A DNA stretch of 64,000 nucleotides from a virus: IMG/VR virus record IMGVR_UViG_3300042691_030495, one strand, 5' to 3'. Positions 35,797-64,000 of the stretch are shown one piece after another. The number at the start of each line of letters is the position of its first letter. Positions within the stretch are counted from its first letter, which is position 1. The position numbers and the translations under genes are program-made. A model generated the notes under the pieces. The model was not told where the DNA came from. It saw only the letters and a program-made list of their open reading frames with translations, and did not search any database.

Positions 35797-38700
35797 ATGC
35801 TAAAGATCGGAACTAAAGTTTTTGTGGCAGAACACAAGAGCATAGTTGGACGTGTGGCAAACTTCGATGTTGAAGAAGGATACGTTTACGTCAGGACAAC
35901 TGATAACAACGTGATTTGGATTCACCAAGATAAACTGGTAGTATCTAATCAAGAAGGGGAGGTGTGAGATGGAAGAATGGACAAATGGTAGCCTAATCAA
36001 CACAGAGGCTATTGAGGCTCTAACACCAGAGCAAATAAAACAGCTGGAAGAAATTTTAGCTAAGCTCTAAGCTTTATGGATAGCCCCCCGAAAGGGGGGT
36101 TATTTTTTTGCCGGATCCGGCGCTCCGGTGATCCAAATTTTGTTATGGATTTGTTATTAAAATGTCCTCACTTTTGTCGGCGGTATAGGGTAAAGTGAAT
36201 TATGGAATTAGGATTCTACAAAGTACAAAGATAGGTAATTCTAGAAGTAGATGAAATGCCTTCTCCTAATACCAAACTAAAAACTAGACAAAGGGGAAAC
36301 AAATGGAAAAAGACTCAAGAGTGGCAACAGTTTCAGAGCTACCGAAATGCGATTTCTGCGGGGGTAGCGCTAGATACGATGGTGCAACTAAACTAGGCCC
36401 GTGGGCCTTTATGTGCCAAACAGACTGGCTAGCGAATGGCGTTGGGCTAGGATTAGGTAAAGGGCAATTACTACTAAAAGAAAAGGGAAACTAATGAACG
36501 AGATAAATGTTTATGGAACAACTTACTCACGCGAATACATTGAGAGTCAAGTGGAGGGCTACAAAAAGATGAGAGCCGATTTGGCTAATGGAACAATTAC
36601 GCCCCGCCGTGTAGTTGGAACAGGATACAAAAACAGCCGCATGGTTGCGGAAGTGTGGATAGGCGAAAACATCGCCAGATACGAAACACTAAAAGCAGTA
36701 ATGGATTCAGCCTTGACACCAAGTGTCAAGTAGTGGACAATTAGAAACACAACAGAAAGGGAAATGAAATGGCTACAACAGTTGGAGATTTGATCAAGAG
36801 TCTACAGACAGTGGACCCTAATACCCCCGTGGTATTTCAGTACTTGCTACCGGAACACACAGACTACACAACCAAAAAGTTTGCGAAACTAAGTGAAGCA
36901 TTAGAGTACACCAGTTTCGCGGATGAAATGTCTAGAGAGTTTACAGGCTGGCTAGAAGAAATGGAGACAGTCTAATGAGCTGGCTTGTTGACTTAGTCTC
37001 AGAGCGTGGCTTGAATACAGTAATGGCTACCGTGGAAGCAGAAACAACAGTTTCGGCTTATCTGTTGCTTGAGGATGAAAACTTTCTTGTCGCGCTAAGA
37101 AGCGTTGAGACTTTAGAAGGTCTTATTGATTGGGTAAACGAAAACTACTAGCGCCGCGCGCTTGACAACTGCCGGCCAGTGGCGTATTCTTTAGACAAAG
37201 GGAAAGGGATCAGAAAATGGCAAAGAAACACATTCATCAATTCCAATGGGGAGCTTGCGCGATCTGTGGCAAAGTTGTCAACAAAGGTCTTGGAGTGGAT
37301 CTACTCAAAGGAAAAAAAGTTTAAGACACACGTGAGCTAACAGCAACGAATGTGGTACAGTTCAAATGCAACACAAAACTAAACGAAAGGGAGAATCAAA
37401 TGGGAAGAATGTATGCCGAAGGCATAGCAGAATCAGAAATACCTCTAGAGCAACAGATAGAGTGGCACCTAAAGGGTAATCACTATCCTCCGGTCCCGAA
37501 GTCCATGGTCAAGCCTTGTATGGAAGCTATTGAAGCTTGCAACGAAGAAGATTGGAACAGGGAAATTGCAATGCCCGAGGGAGTTCTTTACCGAGGCTTG
37601 ACTTTTGCTCCGGCCTCAGCTATTGTGGAAGCACATCACTTAGATACTTGGATTACAAACGAAGGGGATTACTAAAATGGGAAACAGGGCTTACATTCAG
37701 ATTGACAGCAAGAATCTAGACTTACCAATTATTCTTTATGGACACTGGTCAGGCGATGATAACCTTACTGCCGTAAAAAATGTTTTAGCTAGGACAACTA
37801 GGATTGGCGACCCTAGCTATCTTGTGGCTCAGATTTTTTATGAGTTCGCGACTCTAGGCAACTACGATGGTGAGTTGTCTTTCGGTATTGAAGTTGGACA
37901 GCTAGCAGGTGGCGAAATGGCAGATGTGCCAAATGTCTATGTTCACGCCGATAGTGGAGCGTATTCTTATTGCGACAAGGTGTATACTGAGTTTGTCCGA
38001 TACCCCGCGGTAGTTGGATTCTAGGTTTCAGCTTGAGTTGAGCTTGCTCCTCAGGCTGGAAGCGGATTAGGTATTATCCCCCTTTTACCTAATCCAAGGC
38101 GGTAGTGGATTCCCCCAATTCACTACCGCCAAAACTTTTTTTGGATCCATAAGATTCCGGTGTGGATACTTGACAAATGTCAGTAGCTACTAGTAGGGTT
38201 CTATTACCTAATGAAAGGGGTAAGTAAATGCTAAAGACAACTTGCTATAAATGCGACAAAGAGATAGAAGTTTTGAGCGACAGGGTAGTTCACCCTTTAT
38301 GCGGTGAGTGTCAAGAAAGTTTTGATGATTGGTTTCAGCGAGAGCTAAATGCGATTGAGCGGTGTGGTAAATGAGCAAAATAGAAACTTGCCGTAAAGGT
38401 CATTCAAGAATTAATCTTTACACTACAACACCAAGTGGAGTTCGATACTGTAAAGACTGTAATTCAATTAGGCAGGGCGCTTGGAGAGCTAAGACTGGTA
38501 GAGTAAGCAAAACTAATTCAAAATACGCCGAAGTCTATGACGCAAACGTTAGGATTACAATTGCTAATCTAGAGAAGCGAGTAACACAGATACAAAAGCA
38601 AATTGCCAAACACAAGGCACGAGTAGAGAGGGGTGAAACTGTTGAGTAAGCAAGTCTATTTTGTAGTTGGTGTGGACTTAGACTCCAAAGAGCCGTTTAT

Positions 38701-49427: not shown

Positions 49428-50837
49428 ATGGGTAAAAGTATTATGGAACAGCTCGCTCTCCTTCCAGAGGAGGAGCGACTAGAGGCTCTTGCTGACATCG
49501 ATCCAGACTCTCTGATCTGGGACTGGTCCGTTTGGGCGCGTCCAGAGCAGCTAGCCCCGCCCGGTACCGATTGGAATATCTGGCTTGTTATGGCAGGCCG
49601 TGGTTTTGGTAAGACTCGCCTAGCAGCAGAATGGGTCCGCGAACAGGCCAAATACACGACTACCGGCCAACGCCGATTCGCACTTGTTGCCCGTACCGCA
49701 GCCGACGTCCGTGACGTTATCGTTGAAGGTGAGTCCGGAATCATCAATATCACCCCTCCAAGCGAGCGTCCACTATACGAGCCTTCGAAGCGTCGTCTAA
49801 CTTGGCCCAACGGAAACACCGCCACACTTTTTACCGCTGACGAACCTGACGGTCTCCGTGGTCCGCAGTTCACTCACGCCTGGGGCGATGAAATTGCAGC
49901 TTGGCGTCAGACTCCAGATGCCGCAGGTATGACCGCCTTCGATAACCTTCGAGTTGGTACTCGTCTTGGTGCAACCCCGCAGATGGTTGTTACCACAACC
50001 CCCAAGCGAGTTCCACTTCTTTACAAACTTATCGAAGAGTCCAGAACCGACAAAGGTAACGTAATTATTACCAAGGGATCTACCATGGACAATGCTGGAA
50101 ACCTTTCCAACTCATATCTTGACACCATTACCGGCGTTTACGAAGGTACCGCCTTGGCTCGCCAGGAGCTTTACGGTGAGATGCTCGAGGATCTCGAAGG
50201 CTCTATGTGGAATGAAGAGATGGTTGAAGAAGCTAGACATGCTATGTATCCATTCTCTACTCCTCTAAGAGTTATCGGCGTTGACCCTTCTGTTGCTGAA
50301 AACCCTCGCGACGAATGTGGAATTGTTGTAGTAGCGTCTACTGCAGATCACGATCTCTACAAGCGCGAAGCATGGGTTCTAGAAGACGCTTCTGTTCACG
50401 GCTCTCCAGATACTTGGGCTCGTAAAGTTGTTGAGATGGCACGCAAGTGGGGGTGCCCTGTTGTAGCCGAAGTAAACCAAGGTGGCGCACTAGTTCGAAA
50501 CGCTATTCTTTCAATCGACCCGAGCATTAAAGTTCTAGAGGTCCACTCTAAGCAAGGTAAACAGCTTCGTGCAGAGCCAATTGTTCTTGCCTACGAGCAA
50601 AAGCGCGTCCACCATGTTGGATACCTACAGGACCTAGAGTCTCAGATGTACTCGTGGATTCCAGGCGAAGGAAAATCTCCTGACCGGATTGACGCACTTG
50701 TCCACGCTTTAACCGCGCTACTAATTAAACCACCGCCTGGCTTTAGCGGAGGAAAGATACGCGCAAAATCTGTGGCAGACAGAAGACTTCCAAAAAGCTC
50801 AATAACTGACCGAGTAAATATCTTTAGAGTCCGCTAA
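49428..50837 (+). CDS. terL: Terminase large subunit
   Basis: AGRGFGKT Walker A, LRGPQF..AWGDE Walker B, TTTP, IGVDP, SPDRIDA nuclease motifs. Confidence 0.95.
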   Translation: MGKSIMEQLALLPEEERLEALADIDPDSLIWDWSVWARPEQLAPPGTDWNIWLVMAGRGFGKTRLAAEWVREQAKYTTTGQRRFALVARTAADVRDVIVEGESGIINITPPSERPLYEPSKRRLTWPNGNTATLFTADEPDGLRGPQFTHAWGDEIAAWRQTPDAAGMTAFDNLRVGTRLGATPQMVVTTTPKRVPLLYKLIEESRTDKGNVIITKGSTMDNAGNLSNSYLDTITGVYEGTALARQELYGEMLEDLEGSMWNEEMVEEARHAMYPFSTPLRVIGVDPSVAENPRDECGIVVVASTADHDLYKREAWVLEDASVHGSPDTWARKVVEMARKWGCPVVAEVNQGGALVRNAILSIDPSIKVLEVHSKQGKQLRAEPIVLAYEQKRVHHVGYLQDLESQMYSWIPGEGKSPDRIDALVHALTALLIKPPPGFSGGKIRAKSVADRRLPKSSITDRVNIFRVR

Positions 50838-51498: not shown

Positions 51499-53250
51499 TT
51501 GGGAATTTTCAATAAGAACAGCAAAAACACACGTAGAGAATCTACTAACAGTCGCTTTAGGGCTTCGGTGCCTCGCACTGCGACCCCTGTTGCTCCAGGC
51601 ATCTCTGTAGATTCTTTCGGTTTGGTTTATGCAGAGCCCGCGGCCTACAACACCCCTAGAGCTTTAACTGCAGCAGCAGCCCAGATAAAAATTGGTGACA
51701 AAACAGAGGCAGAGCAGTTTAAAGCTCGTAGACAGTCCGCTTCTTCGTCCTGGCAGACAGAAGCTTGGGAGTACTACGACGCGATTGGCGAAATTAAGTA
51801 CGCTTTTAATCTTGTTGCTGCAGTTGTATCCCGTATTCGAATCTACGCAGCATCTGTAGACAACCCAGCCGAGGCTCCTGTTCCTGTAAATATCTCAGCG
51901 AACATAGATCCTCAGCTAGCAAGAGCCGCTGAGCGCGCATTGGCAAGACTTAACTCAGCATACGGTGGTCAGGCAGGTCTTTTGAAAGACGCTGCTCTAA
52001 ATCTTCAGGTTACTGGAGAGTGCTACCTAGTTCAGGTTCCAGAACGTGTTGGCACTGGTCTTCCAGAGAGCTGGGACATGAGATCTGTAGATGAACTACA
52101 GCTAGACTCCAGAGGAAACTATGTCATTAGCCCAATTCGCGATGTTTCAGGATCTTCTTCCAACCAAACTTCAAAAAGTGCGATAAAACTTCCTAAGGAC
52201 GCGTTTATTGGACGCATTTGGAAGTCTCACCCTCGTTACTCACTAGAGTCAGACTCATCGCTGCGCGGTCTACTCGATCTTTGCGCTGAACTTCTACTTC
52301 TTAACCGCACCTTCCGTGCAACTGCACGTTCACGCTTGAACGCTGGTGCTCTCTACTTGCCAGACGGACTGTCAGTAGCATCTTCTCCGGATCCAGACTA
52401 CCCATACGATGAAGATGGCGAATACAACGAGCAGTATAACGCCGAGGAAGCTGCTGACGACTTCGAAGATCAACTAATCGACGCGATGACCACTCCGATT
52501 AAGGACGAAGACTCCGCGAGCGCCGTTGTCCCACTTATCATTCGTGGACCTGCAGAACTTGGCGACAAGATCAAGCAGTTTAAGTTCGAGCGTTCGTTTG
52601 ACGCCAGCCTTGTGCAGCGTGCTGACCGAGTCCTTGAGAGAATCATGCAGGGTCTAGACGTCCCTAAGGATGTTGTAACAGGTCTTGCAAATGTTAAGTA
52701 TTCAAACGCTCTACAGATTGACGAAGCACTCTACAAGGCTCACATCGAACCTCTAATGCTTCTTATTGTTGACGCTTTGACTGTTGTTTACTTGCGTCCA
52801 TACCTAATTGCAAACGGCTATGACGAAGAAGCTGTAGCCAAGATTCAGGTTTGGTATGACCCAAGTCAGGTAGCAACCAGAAATGACAGAGCTACCGACG
52901 CAGACAGCGGATTCGACAAGATGGCAGTCTCCTACAACACATGGAGACGCGCGCACGGATTCTCAGATGCAGACGCACCTAGCCCAGCAGAACTTGCACT
53001 ACGCCTTGTAATTGAGAAGGGTATGATCACCCCTGAGCTAACTCAAAGCATGCTAGAAGCGGTTGCGCCTGAACTTAAAGATCTTATTAACGCAGCAAGT
53101 CAAGCCAGCTCTGTAGCTCCTATGCCACCAGAGATTGAGCAATTGCTAGCTGGACAGCCAGTGGCTCCTGGAGCAGAGGCACCTACCGAAGAGCCTGCAG
53201 CAGAAGCCCCGGGTCTTGCAGAACCAGTAGCTCCTCAAGAAGGGCAGTAA
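51499..53250 (+). CDS. Portal protein (actinophage type)
   Basis: Position after terL; WQTEAWEYYDAIGEI.Y, SRLNAGALYLP, DEDSASAVVP, HIEP motifs. Confidence 0.85.
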   Translation: MGIFNKNSKNTRRESTNSRFRASVPRTATPVAPGISVDSFGLVYAEPAAYNTPRALTAAAAQIKIGDKTEAEQFKARRQSASSSWQTEAWEYYDAIGEIKYAFNLVAAVVSRIRIYAASVDNPAEAPVPVNISANIDPQLARAAERALARLNSAYGGQAGLLKDAALNLQVTGECYLVQVPERVGTGLPESWDMRSVDELQLDSRGNYVISPIRDVSGSSSNQTSKSAIKLPKDAFIGRIWKSHPRYSLESDSSLRGLLDLCAELLLLNRTFRATARSRLNAGALYLPDGLSVASSPDPDYPYDEDGEYNEQYNAEEAADDFEDQLIDAMTTPIKDEDSASAVVPLIIRGPAELGDKIKQFKFERSFDASLVQRADRVLERIMQGLDVPKDVVTGLANVKYSNALQIDEALYKAHIEPLMLLIVDALTVVYLRPYLIANGYDEEAVAKIQVWYDPSQVATRNDRATDADSGFDKMAVSYNTWRRAHGFSDADAPSPAELALRLVIEKGMITPELTQSMLEAVAPELKDLINAASQASSVAPMPPEIEQLLAGQPVAPGAEAPTEEPAAEAPGLAEPVAPQEGQ

Positions 53251-53252
53251 TA

Positions 53253-53708
53253 GTGGACCAGCCATCTAGCGTAGATCTTGCAAAGAAACTTGCTCATCTA
53301 CTGTCTGACGTAGTTTCTCTGTCTTTTATTTCTCAGGGGCACCACTGGAACATTAAAGGTTTTAACTTTTATCAGTTCCACGCGTTCTTTGCAGAAATAT
53401 ACGAAGACACTTCTTCAGCGATTGATCCTCTTGCAGAAAACATTAGAAAGCTAGGATTCAATGCCCCCTATCTTCTAACTGACTTTTCCGAGATGACCTG
53501 CATCAACCAAGAACGAATTGACGGAGACGCCATTGAGTCTATTAATTCTTTAGTTAGTGCAAACAGTATTGTAACTAACTGCTACGCAGATGCTTTTGAG
53601 CTTGCAGAAAACTGCAACCAACCAGGCATTGCAGACTTCCTTGCTGGAAGACATGAGATGCACCAGAAGTGGCAGTGGCAGTTAGAGTCAACTTTAGGGA
53701 TTAGATAA
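53253..53708 (+). CDS. dps: Dps / ferritin-like DNA protection protein
   Basis: HWNIKG.NFYQFH.FF.E.YE...IDPLAENIRKLG...HQKWQWQL. Confidence 0.88.
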   Translation: MDQPSSVDLAKKLAHLLSDVVSLSFISQGHHWNIKGFNFYQFHAFFAEIYEDTSSAIDPLAENIRKLGFNAPYLLTDFSEMTCINQERIDGDAIESINSLVSANSIVTNCYADAFELAENCNQPGIADFLAGRHEMHQKWQWQLESTLGIR

Positions 53709-54400
53709 TGTCTTCGTATTTAGAGTCTGCTTTTGGTGGAAACTCAAATATCTCGGGATACTCTTTAGTCCCAGAAGAGCAAGAGTTTGCTGACGCAATC
53801 CTAAAGGTTGCCAAAAAGTACGGAAAGTTTAACGACGACAACAGCGGTGTTTGGGTTGGGTACACTCCTGCCTCAGAGAATGAGGAGAACGCTCAGATTG
53901 GCGTTAAGTGTGGCAACTGTGTCTTCTTCATGGGCGGAAATGCCTGCCAGATCCTAGCTGAAGCAGTGGAGGAGAACGGCCTATGCCGTCTTGCTGTATT
54001 GCCAGATGGCGCAGTCACTGCTACAGCTGGCTCAAAGCCTGCTCCGAAAAAAGATCAAATCAAAGGATCTAAAAAGAACCCTAAAGGTTCGGCCGACGAT
54101 GGCAAGAGCGTAACTTTCAACGAAACCATAATTACGTCCCTCAAGAACAAGGTAGAAAGCCACAACGAAAAGGCAGAAGCTGGCAGAAAAGCAACTCTTC
54201 CAACTCTAAAAGCTGTATACCGCAGGGGTGCTGGAGCTTTCTCTACATCTCACAGGCCTGACCAGAATCGCAACTCTTGGGCTATGGCCAGAGTGAACGC
54301 ATACCTGCACTTACTAAAAACCGGATCTCCTAAAAACTCAAAGTACACAACAGATAATGACCTGCTACCAAAGGGTCACCCAAAGTCAACAAAGAAATAA
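53708..54400 (+). CDS. Head-module hypothetical protein with a Cys cluster domain and a basic C-terminal domain
   Basis: CGNCVFF....C........GLC; LKAVYRRGAGAFSTSHRP...WAMARVNAYL. Confidence 0.65.
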   Translation: MSSYLESAFGGNSNISGYSLVPEEQEFADAILKVAKKYGKFNDDNSGVWVGYTPASENEENAQIGVKCGNCVFFMGGNACQILAEAVEENGLCRLAVLPDGAVTATAGSKPAPKKDQIKGSKKNPKGSADDGKSVTFNETIITSLKNKVESHNEKAEAGRKATLPTLKAVYRRGAGAFSTSHRPDQNRNSWAMARVNAYLHLLKTGSPKNSKYTTDNDLLPKGHPKSTKK

Positions 54401-54473: not shown

Positions 54474-57400
54474 GTGAGCCAAGCGTTCGATTCCCTACTC
54501 GCTAAGATCGAGAACTACTACTCTGACGCGGATTACACCGTTCAAGACGCCGAGCACCTGTCTCGCATCGCTATCTCCGAATACGCTTCGACTCAGAATG
54601 CTCTAGTAGCTTCGGCTCGTCAACTTTCCAATAATTCAGTACAAAAAATTATTGACCTAACAATTAATAAGCACATAACTGCAGACCCAAGCGAGTGGAT
54701 GCTCTTCGCAGCAAATGCCGTAGACAACGTAATTAACTACTCACAGCGCGGTGTACTAGCTTCTGGTCTTTCAGACTTTACAGACTTTTTACCAGTAGGT
54801 CACCCGTCAAGAACTAACCGCGGGGCTATGACCGCCTCTGCACTAAACCAGGCCACCGCGCTTTGGACTGCTGCAGACCCTCGCATTGCTTCTGACGAAG
54901 CTAGATACGACACATACAAAGCATACGCAAGCCAGCCAGGATCAGTTGAAGCAGACTACGCAGCGTATAAACTTTCAGCACTAGTTGCAGCAGGTTATGT
55001 TCCAGAAGACATTAGTCTTCCGATCACTGCAGCGTTCAGAATGAGCTTTGCAATGCGCTCCGCAATGTCTAAGGCACTTGCTGCTGTACGTCGTCGCCAC
55101 CGCGATGGTAGATTCGCTGAAGAGTTTGGACGTCTAAAGGGATTCTTTAGCCGTGGAGACGGAAGCATTTTCTCTGAAAACGGAAGAATTGTTGGCGCTG
55201 AGCGTGGGACCAACAACTTTGAGGTAGAGTTCAGCGGATCCGACGAGATTCCAGATGGTATCTACACCATCGATGCAGCTAAGACAGATTCCGTTAAAGC
55301 TGTTCTATCTAAGCGCGCACTGAAAGGCGTTAAAGGAAAGCGCAGTATTGCAGTGCCGACTCAGGCAGAGCGAGACGCTGCTATTCCTCTAGACGAGTTT
55401 ATAAAAACTAAAAAAGATGCACCAGAGGGTTGGACTAAGAACGAAGATGGATCTTTTACATCTAAGACAGGTCAGACACTACGTCAGGTAGACACTCGCC
55501 CTGAAGGTGACTACATGTTTGAAGGTGCTGGCGAAAGTGGTGCCGAAGATCCTAACGAACCGTTCTTTGAGTTAACTGACAGAGACGGCGAAATAATCGG
55601 TGTTGCTCAGGACTGGGCCGGCGCAAACAAAATTGCACTTACCTACGATGCTTTTGAAGAAGACAGCAAGCCAGAACCAGAAGAGCCAGGTCTCGACCAA
55701 GACGCTCCTGCCTCTGATCAAGAGGATCCTACAGCCATTGGAAAACCGGAAGACCCTAGAGCAGCTGCAATAGAAGATTTAGTATCCAACCTTGACTCTG
55801 CTGAAGCAAGAAGAGAATTTGAGCGCATGGAGCGGAGAGATGGCTCTTGGCTTGACTCAGAGCAGCCATCAATAGACGCGTATGGACCTGACGATAAGAA
55901 TCTGAACTGGAATGCTGAGTACGACAAAACTACTAAGGACCTTATAGAAAAGATTTTTAGTGACCCAGCAGTTGTCGAAGCTCGTAATGATAGGCCACTA
56001 GCTAAAACGCAAGAGGGCGACCCTGAGGACTGGGAATTAGACAATTGGTACCAAGAAGTCGGCGCTGCAATTTCATGGGCAGCAAAAAAGTACGCAGAAG
56101 AAGCTGCACCGGGCCTCGACCAAGATGCTCCTCGAAGCTTAAATGAGCCAGAAGACTCCGCTGTTGACATCGGTCCAGACCTAGAGAGAACTGACAGCGG
56201 AGATTTAGAGTACTACTCTGACACTGCTGGTGCTGACATCTCTAAAGTTGGAGACAAGTGGCAGCTCGTCAAGAGCGGGTTTGAGGATATTGAACAGCAC
56301 CCACGCGGTGTCTACCAGTATGAAGACACTAAGATGTTTGACTCCGAGCAAGAAGCCATAGCTGAAGCACAAAAGTGGATTGATTTAGGTAAGTCTTCTG
56401 ACTTCTACGACTTTATGTATAACGACTGGTTTGATGGCCAAGCAGATGGCCTAGACCAGGATGCCAAAAACCCTAACTGGTTTGAAGACGCTATTGACTT
56501 TGATGCCATAGACAATCAGGATAGCTGGAAAGACCTAGGCGGAGGCTCCAGAGAGTACACCTCACCAGACGGAAAACTAAAACTAACTTTTGAACCAGAC
56601 GGCGACTCGGACGGTGAGGGTGGACTTGTAGACGCCTCCGGAATTACTGTTGAGTACGATGGTCAATCTGTTGGCAGCTTTAAGGCAACCGAGCGCGACC
56701 TCACGTCTCCAGGAGAAGTTGCAGACGCCCTTAGCCGTACTTTAGCTGAAGCTAATTTTAATCCTAACGATTTAATAAAATTTGATGATTTTGGAAATTA
56801 CGGCTTCGAGCGAGAGAGCGGTCTTGGCACAGTTTCTATCTCTAAAAAGTACGACCCAAACACTAAGAAACTCCAGTGGGAAGTAACTAAAGAAGCTCGC
56901 GACCTTATTGATGAGAACGTTGAGCACTCTTTCTTTGAGCAAAAAAAGTTTGACTCCTTAGATGACGCAAGAGCTTTCGCTGAAGAGTTTGCTCAGATTC
57001 TTAACGATGACGACAAATTCTCCAAATTCCTAAACGATGACTGGGCAGACAGAGACTACGACTACGGCTTTGACCAAGCAGGCGGATCTACGACAGATAC
57101 CGTAAAGCAGCTTGCTGACGGATACAACATCACTCCTCGTGTAGAAATAGTTTACAATTCGAACACCAAGCAGTATGAGCGTTCAGTAAACTCGAACGAG
57201 TTTGAAGCAGACGGTGACTTCTACGACTTTGGTTCGGCAGTAGTTAACCTGTCTGAATATGCTCCAGGTAAATGGGTAGCAACTATCTTCTATGGAGATA
57301 GGGATGGCAGTGGCCAGGATACCCTTGAACTTGAGCAAGACTTCAACAGCCCCGAGGAAGCCTTCGAGTGGGTAGCTAACGGATTTGGTAAAGGGTTTGA

Positions 57401-59915
57401 CAACTCTCAGGTTGCGGAAGGTGTATTAGAACGTCAAGACCTAGATGAGATGGCTAGCTTCCTGCAGAACCCTAAGTACAAGGATGCTCACGACGAAGTC
57501 CGTGATGTTTACGATGAGCTCAACTCAAAGTACTTTGAGCAGGCTCCTGGATCAGGAGAGATCGAGGCCACAGAAGGCGGAAATGCTTCCTACAAAGGAC
57601 CAGATGGATCTACTGGATCTATAAAGTCCGACGGCTCCGGCACCTGGGAAGGCTCCTTCACAGACGCTGAGGGAGAAGTCTCCACCAGAAAGTTTAAAGC
57701 AGAAGATAAAGCTGCTGCTTGGCTACAGAAAAAAGTAGACGACTCTAAATTAGCTGCGTTTAAGAAAGAAAATGGCGGGCTATCTCCAAAGCAGCTCGAG
57801 CCAGCTACCTCTAAGCAGTATGACCTACTGCAGGAACTTTTTGACGAGCGCGACGAGATTGATTCTCTAACTTCTGACGCCATCAAAGATGCTCTAGACA
57901 ACCGCAACCTTTCTAAGTCTCAGATTTCTGCCCTATTTGGCGATCTTCAGAAGAAGCCGTTCAAGCCAGGAGTAGACTCCACTAAGCCAACCGACAGAAT
58001 GTTGAACTCTCTACAGGGCTACCTGACTACAAAGCAGATTTCTCCAGAAGAGCTAGACGACATCCTCAGTCAGCTTGAGGCAGGACTAGACCGCCCTGGC
58101 ATCGAGGCCTTGACAAACAAGCTACGTCGTAAGCCAGATAACGCTGACGCAGCTGGCCTTGACCAAGATGTTAACTCCAAGATTGACCCCACTATGCCTG
58201 ACTCAGCAGTAGGTGCTGATGATGACATTAAGCAAGAAATTGAAGACGCTATTGAGCGCGCCCGTAGCGATCACGAGCGCCTATTTGACGAAATAAATGC
58301 AAAAGAAGAAGACGGAGAGATAACTCCGGAAGAGGCAGAGTCCCAGCGGGATGAGCTAGAGCAGGGCTTGGAGCAGTTCCAGTGGGCTGCCCGTAGACGC
58401 TACTACGATTATCTTTGGGAGACCGGAGAGTTCAACGAAGCGTACAACGATGTTCTAGAAGCATGGAACTCGCAGAGTTTCCGCGATGAGGAAAGAGATA
58501 GAGCTTCACTATTTGACGAAGAAAACGAAGAGGATGAGGGATTAGACCAAGACGCTCCAACCAAGCCTCTCACCGAAAAGCAGCTAGAGCCAGCTTCTGA
58601 CGCTCAGTACAACTACCTACAGAGTCTTGTTGAATCCAAGATGAATGTAGACGCTGACACTGCCGCCGCTGTTGCTGAAGCAGCTACTAACAAGAACCTA
58701 AGCAAGGCTCAGGCCGGTGCTCTTATTGGCAAGCTCCGTGTTCTAGATGACAAAGAAAATCTTGGTCAGTACGGCAAGCCTTCTCAAAAGATGATTGACT
58801 CGGTTAATCGCGACGTCTACGCTAAGGGACTTTCCGAAGAAGACAGAAACGAGATTTTAAAAGATCTTGACAGCTTGTCTAAGGCTGATGTCTCAAGCAT
58901 CATAAGCCAGCTCAAGGAGATGCCAAACGTTCCTGGAGGTCTCGACAACTACATCAAGTCTTTAGTTGAAGATGGAGATCTTGAGGCACTTAAGAGACTA
59001 AGAGCTGACGTTAGAAATGAAGACTCCTTCTCTGTATTAGACAAAGCTATAGCTGATGTCGAGGCCGGAAACACTCCTGGACTAGATCAGGCTGCTCCTT
59101 CAGCTCCGGCTTCAGGACCTCTCTATGACAGGGACGAAGCTTCGAACCTACTAGACGAGATAAAAGCGGCTGAAGACGCTGGTGAAATTGGTAGCACCTT
59201 CTTGCCAACAGACTCTCTTAAGGATTTTGACCCTGAAGACATCGGAGATGCGGCTAGCATGTATGTCGAGTTAGACGATGCTATCGGCAATGTTGGAGAG
59301 GGCAGCTTAAGACAGAAGCTAGAGCAGTTTGCTGAAAAACTACTCAGCAGCATCCAGTCTAGGCTTGGCCCAGTTGAGTCCGCTAAGCGCGACAGCGATG
59401 ATATCGGAAGCGAATTAGAGTTTGATCGCACTTCTAGAAGAGCTAACGATCTTGTTGAGTTCTACTACCCCTCAGAAGGTATCGCTTTTGACCAGCTAAA
59501 TGAGCCAGGAAACAGCAATGTTGGAGACAACAGAGGCGGCGGCTGGGAAGCACGAGTTGCTCTAGACGAAGATGAAGAAGAGGAAACTTGGGTTGCAACC
59601 TTAACCTCTCCCGAAAACGACAGCCAAAACGAGCAAAGAAGTTTTGACAACCAAGAAGACGCGGCTCGCTGGGCAGCAGAAAACTTAGAGTCTAATAATA
59701 ACGAGCTTTTGCCATCAGAATTAGATGAGTTTTTGAGTGGACAAATCTTCTCGACTTATGCTGACAACCCTCAGGCGCTAATCTCTAAGCTGAACGACAT
59801 AGCTGAGTGGTTCCGAGGAACCCGTAGAGGCGACGGAGAAGACGTAGCTAGGGGAATCCTAGAATACGTAGATCGACTAGAAAACCTTCTTGGAGACTCT
59901 GCCCCAAAAGCGTAG
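54474..59915 (+). CDS. Giant acidic multidomain (polyvalent-type) head-associated protein with G[LF]DQ linkers
   Basis: 1813 aa; located between portal and head genes; seven G[LF]DQ[DA] linkers; internally repeated small domains. Confidence 0.8.
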   Translation: MSQAFDSLLAKIENYYSDADYTVQDAEHLSRIAISEYASTQNALVASARQLSNNSVQKIIDLTINKHITADPSEWMLFAANAVDNVINYSQRGVLASGLSDFTDFLPVGHPSRTNRGAMTASALNQATALWTAADPRIASDEARYDTYKAYASQPGSVEADYAAYKLSALVAAGYVPEDISLPITAAFRMSFAMRSAMSKALAAVRRRHRDGRFAEEFGRLKGFFSRGDGSIFSENGRIVGAERGTNNFEVEFSGSDEIPDGIYTIDAAKTDSVKAVLSKRALKGVKGKRSIAVPTQAERDAAIPLDEFIKTKKDAPEGWTKNEDGSFTSKTGQTLRQVDTRPEGDYMFEGAGESGAEDPNEPFFELTDRDGEIIGVAQDWAGANKIALTYDAFEEDSKPEPEEPGLDQDAPASDQEDPTAIGKPEDPRAAAIEDLVSNLDSAEARREFERMERRDGSWLDSEQPSIDAYGPDDKNLNWNAEYDKTTKDLIEKIFSDPAVVEARNDRPLAKTQEGDPEDWELDNWYQEVGAAISWAAKKYAEEAAPGLDQDAPRSLNEPEDSAVDIGPDLERTDSGDLEYYSDTAGADISKVGDKWQLVKSGFEDIEQHPRGVYQYEDTKMFDSEQEAIAEAQKWIDLGKSSDFYDFMYNDWFDGQADGLDQDAKNPNWFEDAIDFDAIDNQDSWKDLGGGSREYTSPDGKLKLTFEPDGDSDGEGGLVDASGITVEYDGQSVGSFKATERDLTSPGEVADALSRTLAEANFNPNDLIKFDDFGNYGFERESGLGTVSISKKYDPNTKKLQWEVTKEARDLIDENVEHSFFEQKKFDSLDDARAFAEEFAQILNDDDKFSKFLNDDWADRDYDYGFDQAGGSTTDTVKQLADGYNITPRVEIVYNSNTKQYERSVNSNEFEADGDFYDFGSAVVNLSEYAPGKWVATIFYGDRDGSGQDTLELEQDFNSPEEAFEWVANGFGKGFDNSQVAEGVLERQDLDEMASFLQNPKYKDAHDEVRDVYDELNSKYFEQAPGSGEIEATEGGNASYKGPDGSTGSIKSDGSGTWEGSFTDAEGEVSTRKFKAEDKAAAWLQKKVDDSKLAAFKKENGGLSPKQLEPATSKQYDLLQELFDERDEIDSLTSDAIKDALDNRNLSKSQISALFGDLQKKPFKPGVDSTKPTDRMLNSLQGYLTTKQISPEELDDILSQLEAGLDRPGIEALTNKLRRKPDNADAAGLDQDVNSKIDPTMPDSAVGADDDIKQEIEDAIERARSDHERLFDEINAKEEDGEITPEEAESQRDELEQGLEQFQWAARRRYYDYLWETGEFNEAYNDVLEAWNSQSFRDEERDRASLFDEENEEDEGLDQDAPTKPLTEKQLEPASDAQYNYLQSLVESKMNVDADTAAAVAEAATNKNLSKAQAGALIGKLRVLDDKENLGQYGKPSQKMIDSVNRDVYAKGLSEEDRNEILKDLDSLSKADVSSIISQLKEMPNVPGGLDNYIKSLVEDGDLEALKRLRADVRNEDSFSVLDKAIADVEAGNTPGLDQAAPSAPASGPLYDRDEASNLLDEIKAAEDAGEIGSTFLPTDSLKDFDPEDIGDAASMYVELDDAIGNVGEGSLRQKLEQFAEKLLSSIQSRLGPVESAKRDSDDIGSELEFDRTSRRANDLVEFYYPSEGIAFDQLNEPGNSNVGDNRGGGWEARVALDEDEEEETWVATLTSPENDSQNEQRSFDNQEDAARWAAENLESNNNELLPSELDEFLSGQIFSTYADNPQALISKLNDIAEWFRGTRRGDGEDVARGILEYVDRLENLLGDSAPKA

Positions 59916-59932
59916 CCCCCAGCGAGGGGGCT
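59903..59932 (+). other. Programmed -1 ribosomal frameshift signal
   Basis: Slippery heptamer C CCA AAA (59903-59909) in the correct phase; hairpin AGCCCCC/GGGGGCT (59914-59932); -1 frame open into the downstream ORF. Confidence 0.8.
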
Positions 59933-62221
59933 GACAGTGGTGTTGGTCTAGATCAAGATGCCGCGGCTATTGACAGAATTAACAAGGTTCTAGCTAAGTA
60001 TCGCCCTGAGCCAGCGCCAAGCAACTCTGTACGTCCTGCGGTAGCAGTGGGCGAGCCAGGATCTAAAGCTAACCCACTCAAGCTAGATGACGAGCAGCTA
60101 CAAGAAAAAACTACACAGGTCACTAAAACCAACCTAGCTGCTTCAATTTCAGTTCTTTCTGAACTATATGACGCTTTTGATAATGTTAAAAAATTCGCAT
60201 TTTGGCGAAGAAAATGGGACCGCAACGCTACTAGGCCTATACCAGTAAACCCTGGTACTGGAGCCTACTACAAAGGTCCCAACGTGTTTGCTTTAGAAGA
60301 GGCAGCGGCTAAGAACGGATTTAGCGACCCTCGTTGGATGACCGCTCAGCAAATACTAAATATGGGTGGGTCAGTTCCTAGCGGTACCAAAGGTACACAA
60401 ATCCTAGTCCCTCAGGTTTTGGTTACTGATGTCAAAGGCAAAGTTGTAGAGCTGTATGAGTTTATGAAGGTTACTGTTTTTAATGGCGACCAGGTCGATG
60501 GAATCCCGTCATATAACCAAGATGACAACAAATCATATACTCCAGAAGAAGCTGCGAATATTCTTTTAGACCGCCTACGCGAAGCCTCTGAGATCAGAGA
60601 CACCGGACAACCAAATGTATTTGGGATTCAGCTTGATGAAGATCAAAATCCTCGATGGATGCCAAACTACGGTTCTTTTCAGCCTGAAAAAATACGACTA
60701 CCGCTTAGAGCAAATTTTGAGGATGACGAAGAGTGGTTTAACACTCTAGCTCACGAACTTATCCACTCTACGGGTAAACTTAACCGACTTGATAGAAAAG
60801 AACTAGATAAAGCTTTTGAAGGTGATGACTCAAGTAGGGCGGAGGAAGAGCTTACTGCAGAGCTAGGTGCCATGATTTTAAGTCGAATGTTTGGAATAGG
60901 TTCTGATTCTAAAAACTCTACAGCATACTTACTTAACCACTTAAAAAATGTTAAAGAGCAAGATCGCAACAACGCTGTAACCGCTGCAGTGTCTAGAGCA
61001 CAGGTTGCGGTTGAGTACTTACTGGGGAATGATGTTTTGCCTCAGTGGGACCCACTAAAGACTAAGGTCTTCCCAACCATACAGTCTGAAAGATTAGATG
61101 TCACTACTCCAAAAGCTTCAAGCTTAAACCCAGACCCAACTCCTGACTTTGTTGATGCCCAGTTAGCTGGCTTTGATCAGGCAGTAGGAGAGGAGTCAGT
61201 CGACCAGGGTAAGTCAATATCAAACAGCAAAGACGCCAAAGAAAAAGTTCTGTCTAGCCTGTTAGAAAAAATTAAAGAAGGTAAGACTCCTTGGCGTAAA
61301 CCGTTTAAAGAAGGATCAAACTTTGCAGGAGCAGACTTACCTAGAAACCCAGCATCAAAGCATATCTACAATGGCATAAACGCGATGGTTCTAAGACTAA
61401 ACCAGCAGCTTTCTGGATATGACGACCCTCGTTGGATGACATACAAGCAAGCTCAGGATCTCGGTGGAAACGTTAGAAAAGGCGAGAAGGGTGTTCCAAT
61501 TCTTATACCTTTCAAGCAGGTTCGCAAAGAGAAAGATTCTGCAACTGGACAAGAAGTAGTTACCGGTAGCTTTATAAGATTTGGAACCGGAACAGTCTTT
61601 AACGTCTCTCAGATTGATGGCATTACTCTTCCTACTGCTAAAGAAGAGGCAGGAGAACCAAAGACTCCTCTAGAGGCTCAAGAATTTATTTTAGAGCGCT
61701 ACAAAAAGTCTATGGAAGCTAAAGGTCTAAAGACACCAGAAGTTGAGTACACCTACATTGGAGAGTACGGGAACCACGCTTCTTCTCCAAACTGGAGTCC
61801 TTCTCTAGATAGAATTACACTTCCAACCAAGGAGCAGTTCAACAGTCCAGAAGACATGTTTGACACTATTGCCCACGAGCTAGCCCACAGCACGGGACAC
61901 AAGGATCGCCTAGATAGGACAGAACTTACCAGCAAGTATGGATCTGATAGCGCCGCTCGCGGCCAAGAGGAGCTCATAGCTGAGATAGCAGCTGCTATTT
62001 TGGCGAGCATGTTTGGAGTCAATAGCGACTTTGATAACACTGCAGCTTACGTAAAGAGCTGGCTTGCAGCCCTAAAGGATGACCCTAACATGGTTACCCT
62101 ATCCTCCTCAGAAGCCCAGAAGGTAGTAGACTACATACTAGGCATGGATCTAGGAGACTGGAGTCCAATAGAAGGCTACAAATCTACAGTTACTAAAAAA
62201 GATGGAGACTCAGATGAGTGA
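59909..62221 (+). CDS. Tandem ArdC-like (DUF1738 ssDNA-binding + zincin metallopeptidase) modules, probably expressed as the -1 frameshift extension of 54474-59915
   Basis: Two copies of P.N....Y.G.N...DPRWMT..Q....GG.V..G.KG and HELxH...EEL.AE...N..AY; the ORF track starts it at GTG 60047, which has no SD. Confidence 0.85.
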   Translation, partial: SVAPSEGADSGVGLDQDAAAIDRINKVLAKYRPEPAPSNSVRPAVAVGEPGSKANPLKLDDEQLQEKTTQVTKTNLAASISVLSELYDAFDNVKKFAFWRRKWDRNATRPIPVNPGTGAYYKGPNVFALEEAAAKNGFSDPRWMTAQQILNMGGSVPSGTKGTQILVPQVLVTDVKGKVVELYEFMKVTVFNGDQVDGIPSYNQDDNKSYTPEEAANILLDRLREASEIRDTGQPNVFGIQLDEDQNPRWMPNYGSFQPEKIRLPLRANFEDDEEWFNTLAHELIHSTGKLNRLDRKELDKAFEGDDSSRAEEELTAELGAMILSRMFGIGSDSKNSTAYLLNHLKNVKEQDRNNAVTAAVSRAQVAVEYLLGNDVLPQWDPLKTKVFPTIQSERLDVTTPKASSLNPDPTPDFVDAQLAGFDQAVGEESVDQGKSISNSKDAKEKVLSSLLEKIKEGKTPWRKPFKEGSNFAGADLPRNPASKHIYNGINAMVLRLNQQLSGYDDPRWMTYKQAQDLGGNVRKGEKGVPILIPFKQVRKEKDSATGQEVVTGSFIRFGTGTVFNVSQIDGITLPTAKEEAGEPKTPLEAQEFILERYKKSMEAKGLKTPEVEYTYIGEYGNHASSPNWSPSLDRITLPTKEQFNSPEDMFDTIAHELAHSTGHKDRLDRTELTSKYGSDSAARGQEELIAEIAAAILASMFGVNSDFDNTAAYVKSWLAALKDDPNMVTLSSSEAQKVVDYILGMDLGDWSPIEGYKSTVTKKDGDSDE

Positions 62222-62381
62222 AAAGAAACCAGACATCCTAGGTGGTTACACTGAAAATGATCCAGAATACTGGGCACTTTTAGCAAAGATCATAGGGAAC
62301 CCTGTGCCAGAGTACGAAGACGACAGCGAGTTCGTTGACGAAAATGGCGTTGTCATAAAAGACATAAAGCCCGCTGAATAA
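62214..62381 (+). CDS. Small acidic protein (55 aa)
   Basis: GGAG SD; ATG overlaps the end of the ArdC ORF; MSEKKPDILGGYTENDPEYWALL... Confidence 0.55.
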   Translation: MSEKKPDILGGYTENDPEYWALLAKIIGNPVPEYEDDSEFVDENGVVIKDIKPAE

Positions 62382-62439
62382 ATCACTTATAAAAATAACG
62401 GGTAATATTGACCTAGGGTCTACAATCTATAGGATTTGA

Positions 62440-64000
62440 ATGAATAACCTAATTGGCCGCTCTGGCAGCTTGTCTCTCTATGCTAATAACGAGCATGGAG
62501 TGATTATTGACTCCTCCATCGGAGCAGTTGTTGCTAGTGGTGCTGCTTCTGACGTTTACTTCCTTGAGAGCTGGGATCTTCCGACTGATCCGGGGGCTAA
62601 AGCTGAAATTCTATTAGCTGAAAAAGCCTTGAGCGCTCTTGAAGAAAAAGCTATTGTTGCTGCCGCCGACAGAATGTACACAATTCCGAAAACTGTACAG
62701 GCTGAAGCTAAGAAAGCTTTAGAGTGGCGCAAAGAAGAGAACCGTGGGGGAACTCCTGTAGGTCTTAACACTGCTCGCACTCTTGCAAAAGGCGGTCAGA
62801 TTGGCATTCGTAAGATTCGCCACATTGCAAAATACTTCCCTCGTCATGAGGTAGACAAAAAAGGCAAGGGCTGGAAGCCTGGCCAAGAAAACTATCCATC
62901 TAACGGACGCATCGCGTGGGCACTCTGGGGTGGAGATGCAGCATGGCGCTGGGCACGCACAATTGTAGAGCGTGAAAACAAAAAGCCTGTAACTTCAGGG
63001 GGCTACTACCCAGGGCAGACAAACTTCGAAACAAGCTCGGAAGATATAAATCCATTTAAATACGCTAACGATCTTGACATGCACTACGGACCTGAATTTT
63101 TAGTCAGAGTCTGCTTAGACGGTTCCGGAATGGATCGCCTATACATGGTTGACATCGACGGATCGATTTACGTGTGGGACGACTCTAACTGGGACAACAT
63201 GGGACATGTCGATGGTGATGTGTGGACATACGATCGTATGCTAGATGATGTTTACGATACTCAGGAAAAAACTCACGTAATTATCGACCCTCAGTCGGCT
63301 CTGCAAATAGCAGCACGCATGGCTGTAGATCCTGGTTGCAAAGTAACTATGTATGAGCTTGACCAGGATGAAGCAGCTCTTACTATGTCAGGGCTTCAGG
63401 ATGAAGACTGGGACTTTATAGACCAAGTAATTGTTGCAGCCGGTACAGCTGACCCAACGACATCCCAGGCAGATAAAGATGGTGACGGAGTACTAGACTC
63501 TGATTTCTTATCTGAAAAAGCAGAAAACCAACCTAGAGATGCACGCGGTCAATTTGCTGCTGCAGGTTCTAGGGTTATTGTTGGTGGCGACGCCCAGCGC
63601 GGGTCAGGTGTTATTACAAAAGTAGACAGCAAGACCGGAATGGTTTCCGTTCGACTTGACAGCGGAAAAGAAATTGAAGTAGACGCTAAGTACACCGAAG
63701 GCGAAAAAGGCTTTGTTGGCCCTAGAGCCGTACCTAAGACCGTAGCCCCATTAGACCTTTCTGGAATTATTGGAGAATCTAGAACTCCAATTAACATGCC
63801 TAATGCTCACCTTCCTGGAACGCTACCTCCGATGTCCAGTAGAGACATTGACAACATGCTTTACAACTGGCCTAAGTACGTATCTGACATGCGCAGTTCC
63901 TACAAGCCAGCAGACGCAGCAGACAAAGAACGAGTAAAAAAGACCTGGGGACTTGAAAAGTTTGCAGGAGAAAACTCTATTGTTGCCGCAGCGGAAACAG
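62440..64000 (+). CDS. Large head morphogenesis protein (probable capsid-maturation protease fusion), truncated by the window edge
   Basis: Frame open from ATG 62440 to the end; ALEWR..NRGGTPVG...YFPRHEVDK...PSNGRIAWALWGGDA domain, QPRDARGQF motif; no protease domain is visible within the window. Confidence 0.65.
   Translation, partial: MNNLIGRSGSLSLYANNEHGVIIDSSIGAVVASGAASDVYFLESWDLPTDPGAKAEILLAEKALSALEEKAIVAAADRMYTIPKTVQAEAKKALEWRKEENRGGTPVGLNTARTLAKGGQIGIRKIRHIAKYFPRHEVDKKGKGWKPGQENYPSNGRIAWALWGGDAAWRWARTIVERENKKPVTSGGYYPGQTNFETSSEDINPFKYANDLDMHYGPEFLVRVCLDGSGMDRLYMVDIDGSIYVWDDSNWDNMGHVDGDVWTYDRMLDDVYDTQEKTHVIIDPQSALQIAARMAVDPGCKVTMYELDQDEAALTMSGLQDEDWDFIDQVIVAAGTADPTTSQADKDGDGVLDSDFLSEKAENQPRDARGQFAAAGSRVIVGGDAQRGSGVITKVDSKTGMVSVRLDSGKEIEVDAKYTEGEKGFVGPRAVPKTVAPLDLSGIIGESRTPINMPNAHLPGTLPPMSSRDIDNMLYNWPKYVSDMRSSYKPADAADKERVKKTWGLEKFAGENSIVAAAET

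Follow-up and report, generated by a model that had tools for sequence, protein, structure and literature searches.

A probable programmed −1 ribosomal frameshift joining a giant phage protein to a tandem of ArdC-type anti-restriction units

How is a pair of ArdC-type units translated when it lies behind the stop codon of a giant open reading frame (ORF) and in the −1 frame relative to it? This question is raised by IMG/VR virus record IMGVR_UViG_3300042691_030495, of which we analyzed a stretch of 64,000 nucleotides (the window). The giant ORF runs from 54474 to 59915 and the ArdC-coding frame ends at 62221; the fusion discussed below, with its signal elements, domains and linkers, lies on the + strand. 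To judge from the portal gene (51499-53250), the source is an uncultured actinobacterial phage, because the portal protein is closest to those of Actinomycetia phage DSL-LC01 (73% identity) and Microbacterium phages (58 to 64%); the base composition of the window is about 45% G+C. An earlier sequence-only reading had proposed that a hidden −1 programmed frameshift fuses the two frames into one protein. Comparison with relatives supports this proposal: the conservation of the signal, −1-frame coding without a conserved start, the fixed position of the stop, a covarying base pair and in-frame homologues all point to a programmed −1 ribosomal frameshift at C_CCA_AAA, to which we assign a probability of about 0.88.

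The 3' end of the giant ORF reads TCT GCC CCA AAA GCG TAG, with the stop at 59913-59915. A slippery heptamer of the X_XXY_YYZ type, C_CCA_AAA, occupies 59903..59909 in phase with the zero-frame ORF, as is expected of a −1 frameshift site, and is followed by the spacer codon GCG and the zero-frame stop TAG (59910..59915). A stimulatory hairpin of 7 bp is predicted at 59914..59932, formed by AGCCCCC (59914-59920), the loop AGCGA and GGGGGCT (59926-59932); inside it, the conserved helix core consists of C5 (59916-59920) paired with G5 (59926-59930). The full stem starts 4 nucleotides after the heptamer and the C5:G5 core 6 nucleotides after it, the latter in silico within the approximately 5 to 9 nucleotides at which a stimulatory structure is expected. 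The bare hairpin has a predicted energy of −14 kcal/mol. Both the heptamer and the hairpin therefore stand where the sequence-only reading had placed them. GCCCCC-N5-GGGGGC with at most one mismatch has two occurrences in the window, where 0.06 would be expected, and the sole other G:C hairpin of the same shape lies at 36083-36099 (GCCCCCCGAAAGGGGGG). An Rfam search over 59700-60200 returned no match. The GGAG that had been listed as part of the upstream context is present at 59892..59895 but is conserved in no relative; since the eight bases 5' of the heptamer vary throughout the 16 aligned relatives, we rejected it as a stimulator, and it is probably incidental and outside the signal.

After a slip at such a heptamer both tRNAs can re-pair (CCA to CCC, AAA to AAA), and together with a stable G:C helix at the right distance this is the canonical bacterial arrangement. 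Ribosomes would reach C_CCA_AAA with tRNA-Pro on CCA and tRNA-Lys on AAA, and the C5:G5 core should then sit at the mRNA entry channel, hindering translocation. Some ribosomes would slip back one base and read the −1 frame for 770 codons, which would yield a 2582-residue fusion carrying two ArdC-N/zincin-peptidase units, while the remaining ones would read GCG and stop at TAG, yielding a protein of 1813 residues. The fusion would presumably be the minority product; the sequence-only reading had suggested that frameshifting may thereby set a substoichiometric dose of the ArdC/peptidase effectors.

The relatives were collected without presupposing a frameshift signal. When IMG/VR was scanned at the protein level with the ArdC tandem as the query, six loci were found, and all six have the end of the giant ORF and the opening of the ArdC frame at the same place, with a −1 offset. 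Scans with an alignment of the last 300 residues of the giant protein (A2, 25 to 51% identity) added further loci from GenBank metagenome, TARA Oceans and JGI sequences. A profile-free search with the N-terminal 320 residues yielded 243 representative clusters; among the 25 best-scoring ones (P0002-P0026), 18 terminate in [PK]-K-[AD]. DNA was retrieved for six of the proteins with this ending, and the signal was present in every case, followed in five loci by a −1 ORF encoding ArdC-N/MPTase, while the sixth contig stops at the hairpin. The similar endings KKA and KKD of P0132 and P0130 were considered as signals and rejected as coincidental, since no ArdC lies downstream. The P0130 locus (L035), a distant relative without ArdC, served as a negative control: it shows an ordinary gene boundary, AAG AAG GAC TAG followed by a GGAGA-spaced ATG, with no heptamer and no hairpin. 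Against cultured phages, neither blastn of the junction nor tblastn of the giant protein's C-terminal module gave a match, and the ArdC matches there are single units with at most 33% identity, the value of the nearest one.

Altogether, 17 distinct signals were obtained (16 aligned in A4, plus that of L037 at a contig end) from independent IMG/VR, GenBank metagenome, TARA, JGI, ENA and Logan assemblies, and thus the cassette is conserved in related phages, a check that the sequence-only reading had proposed. The heptamer stands at the identical position and in phase in all 17, as CCCAAAA in 11, including the window, and as AAAAAAA in 6. The codon after it is GCN in 16 of the 17 and GAC in the other one. 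The zero-frame stop may be TAG, TAA or TGA, fixed in position and variable in identity. In the relatives the helix consists of C5, a five-base loop of freely varying sequence and G5, with four invariant C-G pairs and one compensatory change from C-G to U-A (the inner pair, in L031). The outer helix pair alternates between G-C and A-U or is missing, and the two outermost pairs are found only with a TAG stop and partly with TAA. The bare hairpins of the relatives fold at −11 to −15 kcal/mol.

DNA alignment reveals that CCCAAAAGCNTAGCCCCC-N5-GGGGGCT stands out against diverged flanks, which are 43 to 54% identical outside the signal (seven sequences). All seven signal codons with a conserved residue (CCA, AAA, AGC, GCC, CCC, GGG and GCT) are invariant, versus 3 of 60 elsewhere (5%; binomial P 8e-10). 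Of the 22 codons outside the signal that are fourfold-degenerate and have a conserved residue, none is invariant, and nearby conserved residues, for example those of the GLDQDA linker, vary freely at third codon positions. Conservation at the junction hence goes beyond what the protein needs, as is expected of a −1 frameshift site. These observations bear on the explanation that a single in-frame gene has been split, be it by an indel from sequencing or assembly or by a recent mutation that inactivated it. The same −1 offset at the same codon is shared by 17 distinct sequences that come from different samples and assemblers, the surrounding 28 nucleotides are conserved far beyond their flanks, and in a decaying pseudogene a frame of 770 codons would not have stayed open and under selection; so although a minority of relatives do carry in-frame fusions, which speaks for such an event, we consider it next to impossible. 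As judged from the alignments, the signal is neither chance nor assembly error, because it occurs in 17 distinct versions in independent metagenome assemblies.

The two heptamer types are also informative about transcriptional slippage, in which RNA polymerase would drop or add an A in the A run so that a fraction of the mRNAs encodes the fusion in frame. Such a process would find a run of seven A in 6 of the 17 signals, which approaches the lengths with known polymerase slippage, but only four A after CCC in the other 11, including the window, too short for efficient slippage. Moreover, what is conserved is an in-phase X_XXA_AAA with a hairpin at ribosomal spacing, as expected for ribosomal frameshifting, and we know of no part played by a downstream hairpin in polymerase slippage. 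This explanation is therefore extremely unlikely.

If ribosomal frameshifting occurs as proposed, is the −1 frame past the slip site read as protein? In the window this frame is open from 59852 to 62221, straight into the ORF called at 60047 as had been claimed, and the extension from the slip site (59909..62221, with base 59909 read twice) comprises 770 codons and a stop. The resulting fusion, 54474..59909 plus 59909..62218, is 2582 residues long, in agreement with the length of about 2,582 first suggested; its peptide reads K-SVAPSEGADSGVGLDQDAAAIDR... from the slip site and leads into two ArdC-N/MPTase units. Over the 42 codons after the hairpin, the −1 frame has a BLOSUM62 score of 124 and no stops, while the same codons in the other two frames score 34 and 39 and have 2 to 7 stops per sequence. 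Just past the junction and 5' of any canonical start, a GLDQ linker is encoded at 59945..59956 (GLDQD begins at 59945, 13 codons after the slip Lys), and it is kept in relatives as (E)PGLDQDAP with synonymous codon changes. The earlier argument that GLDQD within a gap of the ORF track supports −1 translation holds: the fusion contains nine copies of G[LF]DQ, seven 5' of the slip and two 3' of it, where 0.09 would be expected.

The first ATG, GTG or TTG in the −1 frame of the window is the GTG at 60047. In the eight relatives tabulated, the frame opens merely 1 to 17 codons 5' of the heptamer, and the first canonical start is found 21 to 142 codons past the slip without being conserved; in L012, a protein initiated there would lack half of the first ArdC-N domain. 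Because the starts are scattered while the stretch upstream of them is conserved in the −1 frame, independent initiation would omit conserved sequence. The −1 ORF thus overlaps the slip site and codes from there without its own initiation site, as is expected after a −1 frameshift, and the ArdC tandem would be synthesized solely as an extension to the giant protein, because its frame has no conserved start codon.

In the alternative of two ordinary genes, translation of the ArdC tandem would begin at GTG 60047 or at a non-canonical start, and the hairpin would act in termination, attenuation or RNA stability. Public gene calls do list ArdC separately, with starts 78 to 231 nucleotides past the upstream stop, yet GTG 60047 is GAA in the closest relatives and no Shine-Dalgarno-like purine run precedes it. 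The hairpin, lying just 3' of a stop and rich in G:C, resembles a terminator that lacks a U-tract, but no T-run follows it, a terminator scan does not flag it, and protein-level selection in the −1 frame extends over the stretch ahead of the scattered starts and across the hairpin itself. Two separate genes would also leave the conserved in-phase slippery heptamer unexplained, and we regard them as very unlikely. Reassignment or readthrough of the TAG was likewise rejected, because the ArdC-coding frame is −1, the 42 codons after the hairpin contain 2 to 4 stops when read in the zero frame, and the stop in relatives can be TAA or TGA.

A fused product is also encoded without recoding in some relatives. 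IMG/VR contig 3300032334_001128 (L024/G001, 94% complete) has a single ORF of 4801 residues with a homologous C-terminal module and an ArdC tandem at the C-terminus; a GFAQ linker lies about ten residues past the C-terminal module, at the equivalent of the frameshift junction, and more modules follow. Neither heptamer nor hairpin is found at this junction. The peptidase motif is likewise in frame in the database proteins P0017 and P0020-22. In a tree of the N-terminal domain, rooted at the midpoint for drawing only and with 8 of its 18 "frameshift" labels taken from the C-terminal tripeptide alone, the frameshift state is seen throughout the ArdC-bearing clades and in-frame fusions appear in at least two places. 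Homologues that are simple in-frame fusions lacking heptamer and hairpin, which the sequence-only reading had named as evidence against itself, thus exist in a minority of lineages only, and they support the fused product rather than refute the frameshift.

Several features weigh against a programmed frameshift. The helix is supported mainly by invariance, with compensatory cells amounting to only 3 of 112, and the 58-nucleotide context gives modest folding z-scores (−0.8 to −3.7). Spacing from the heptamer is just 4 nucleotides for the full 7-bp stem, although it is 6 for the conserved core, and the 16 aligned relatives (A4) show no conserved upstream Shine-Dalgarno-like stimulator.

The frameshift extension would deliver two similar enzymatic units. 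Unit 1 (60197..60988) consists of an ArdC-N domain at 60197-60418 (PF08401, 61.3 bits) and a zincin MPTase domain at 60680-60988 (PF18818, 70.3 bits) with the motif HELIHSTG. Unit 2 (61229..62101) has ArdC-N at 61229-61600 (PF08401, 102.1 bits) and MPTase at 61790-62101 (PF18818, 97.4 bits) with HELAHSTG, and a GFDQ linker (61169..61180) lies between the units. Both Pfam domains are above cut-off in both units, which are 37% identical to each other, and the tandem matches the anti-restriction protein phrog_7245 (E 3.6e-121). By domain criteria, namely ArdC-N followed by an MPTase with HExxH, the tandem is predicted to encode ArdC-type anti-restriction proteins. The domain content and context also correspond to those of polyvalent proteins, with two ArdC-N + MPTase pairs in a 2582-residue fusion encoded between the portal and prohead-protease genes. 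In a TARA Oceans relative (L014:4753-8334), the −1 extension is 1194 residues long, and its ArdC tandem is preceded by an ADP-ribosyltransferase domain (PF03496, E 2.5e-11); additional modules are also found in the −1 extensions of L004 and L013. The frameshift-delivered payload is therefore variable.

The product of termination at TAG is the giant head-module protein of 1813 residues (54474..59915), in which no Pfam family was found above cut-off. Its N-terminal domain of about 320 residues (54474..55433) is common to a large family of giant phage proteins, comprising at least 243 clusters (50% identity) of 0.3 to 5.3 thousand residues; in most of the matches listed the domain begins within the first 50 residues or so, and a few begin later or look truncated. 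It is the best-conserved part of the protein, with 70 to 84% identity within the clade (A3) versus 37 to 51% for the C-terminal module, and the only part in common with the giant protein of Actinomycetia phage DSL-LC01. The domain has no Pfam family, and an AlphaFold model built from six sequences had a mean pLDDT (predicted local distance difference test) of 54.5, too poor for a fold search. Because it is best conserved and the sole part common to the giant proteins of other actinobacterial phages, the sequence comparison suggests that this domain is a capsid or portal anchor carrying variable cargo. Its conservation and the position of the gene are consistent with a domain that would bring both products into the procapsid. 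In L004, one in-frame TGA (L004:5746-5748) breaks the giant ORF and is flanked by a duplicated ...DLEGLDQ... segment, and the database protein P0003 (888 residues) stops at the same point; this TGA may mark a genuine split, a site of readthrough or the scar of a recombination event.

The linker motif recurs along the fusion. Outside it, G[LF]DQ is found only twice in all six frames of the 64-kb window. The broader form [GD][LF][DAESG]Q is absent from the neighboring prohead-protease protein and is enriched in each of the clades with ArdC/MPTase (observed versus expected, 23 versus 2.2, 16 versus 1.6, 27 versus 4.7 and 66 versus 5.5) and not in the sister clade without ArdC (5 versus 6.3), a comparison that amounts to about one phylogenetic contrast. 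The slip site is always in or beside such a linker. The form of the linker differs among clades: GLDQ or GFDQ in the window clade, GLGQ in P0005-7, DLDQ or DLGQ in the AAAAAAA clade and GFAQ in the in-frame clade. For polyvalent proteins, it has been proposed that the MPTase releases the modules autoproteolytically (Iyer et al. 2017, PMC5512222). The linker pattern seen here would fit a polyprotein that is cleaved between its modules, possibly by its own MPTase, and the [GD][LF]xQ linkers may be the cleavage sites at which the modules, among them ArdC, are freed to be delivered along with the DNA. In that case the frameshift would fix the amount of ArdC/peptidase accompanying the upstream cargo. 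A more specific and rather doubtful proposal, weakly hinted at by the clade pattern of linker enrichment, is that of a Gag-Pro-Pol-like system in a tailed phage, in which a limiting, frameshift-supplied zincin MPTase would cut the [GD][LF]xQ linkers of a capsid-packaged polyprotein; if this were true, the slip frequency would set the enzyme:substrate ratio and the timing of cargo release.

The locus lies among head genes. The large terminase (49428-50837) and the portal are followed directly 3' of the latter by a Dps/ferritin-like protein (PF00210, 53253-53708), then by DUF5824 (53708-54400), the giant ORF, the ArdC tandem and a second giant gene, whose counterparts in relatives contain a head-maturation (prohead) protease domain (phrog_18402). 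The Dps/ferritin-like gene stands after the portal in the same arrangement in every fetched relative (L031-L034, L037). A small ORF of 48 to 57 residues is called directly after the ArdC gene in four relatives (L031:10219-10392, L032:10198-10344, L034:11596-11742 and L036:6510-6680), at a place where the window has a gap of 219 nucleotides (62221-62440).

Frameshifts of related design are known from several systems. In IS3/IS911 orfA-orfB, a −1 shift creates a longer, fused, active protein. The signal described here resembles those of Escherichia coli dnaX and of IS3/IS911 in its in-phase X_XXA_AAR heptamer, simple G:C-rich stem-loop about 6 nucleotides downstream and nearby zero-frame stop. 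However, its heptamer is C_CCA_AAA or A_AAA_AAA instead of A_AAA_AAG, it has no conserved upstream Shine-Dalgarno-like stimulator, and its 770-codon extension encodes anti-restriction/peptidase units on a phage structural-module protein of 1812 residues, with no sequence relationship to those systems. The lambda G/GT tail chaperone, T7 gene 10A/10B capsid and Listeria phage capsid and tail proteins are structural-gene frameshifts with short structural or chaperone extensions. The likeness to these lies in a late-operon gene with two products that share an N-terminus in a fixed ratio, the longer one being assembled via the common N-terminal part, whereas the predicted extension here is a pair of effector enzymes (ArdC-N + zincin).

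In retroviral Gag-Pol, a −1 frameshift is followed by proteolytic maturation. The logic would be similar, with an abundant N-terminal packaging polyprotein, a minority frameshift fusion with enzymes including a peptidase, and repeated short linkers between modules. Unlike Gag-Pol, the locus belongs to a double-stranded DNA tailed phage without retroviral homology, and packaging, linker cleavage and the product ratio are inferred here. Polyvalent proteins are giant multi-module proteins encoded beside head genes, with ArdC-N + MPTase as their commonest module pair (Iyer et al. 2017, PMC5512222). The fusion shares this size, position and module pair, but its ArdC/MPTase modules would be attached conditionally by recoding, and the linker motif [GD][LF]xQ marks its module boundaries. 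Neither "frameshift" nor "recoding" occurs in the text of the founding polyvalent-protein paper (PMC5512222), and our literature search found no paper linking frameshifting to ArdC or polyvalent proteins. The mechanism is accordingly of a known kind, and what appears to be new is that it would join anti-restriction effectors to a virion polyprotein in a Gag-Pol-like manner.

Gene callers report this locus as three pieces, namely a giant "hypothetical protein", a gap labeled "intergenic" and an ArdC gene that is truncated, and therefore the true products would be mis-annotated across a lineage of abundant freshwater and marine actinobacterial phages. The finding would add a conserved, easily recognised recoding signal beyond the tail-chaperone and capsid cases, and its compact 30-nucleotide element, with natural variants of heptamer, stop and helix, is useful to measure frameshifting in Actinobacteria. 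The signal and the linker motif together make the long-proposed processing of polyvalent proteins directly testable. For the phages themselves, the frameshift would mean that recoding can serve to link anti-restriction effectors to virion cargo.

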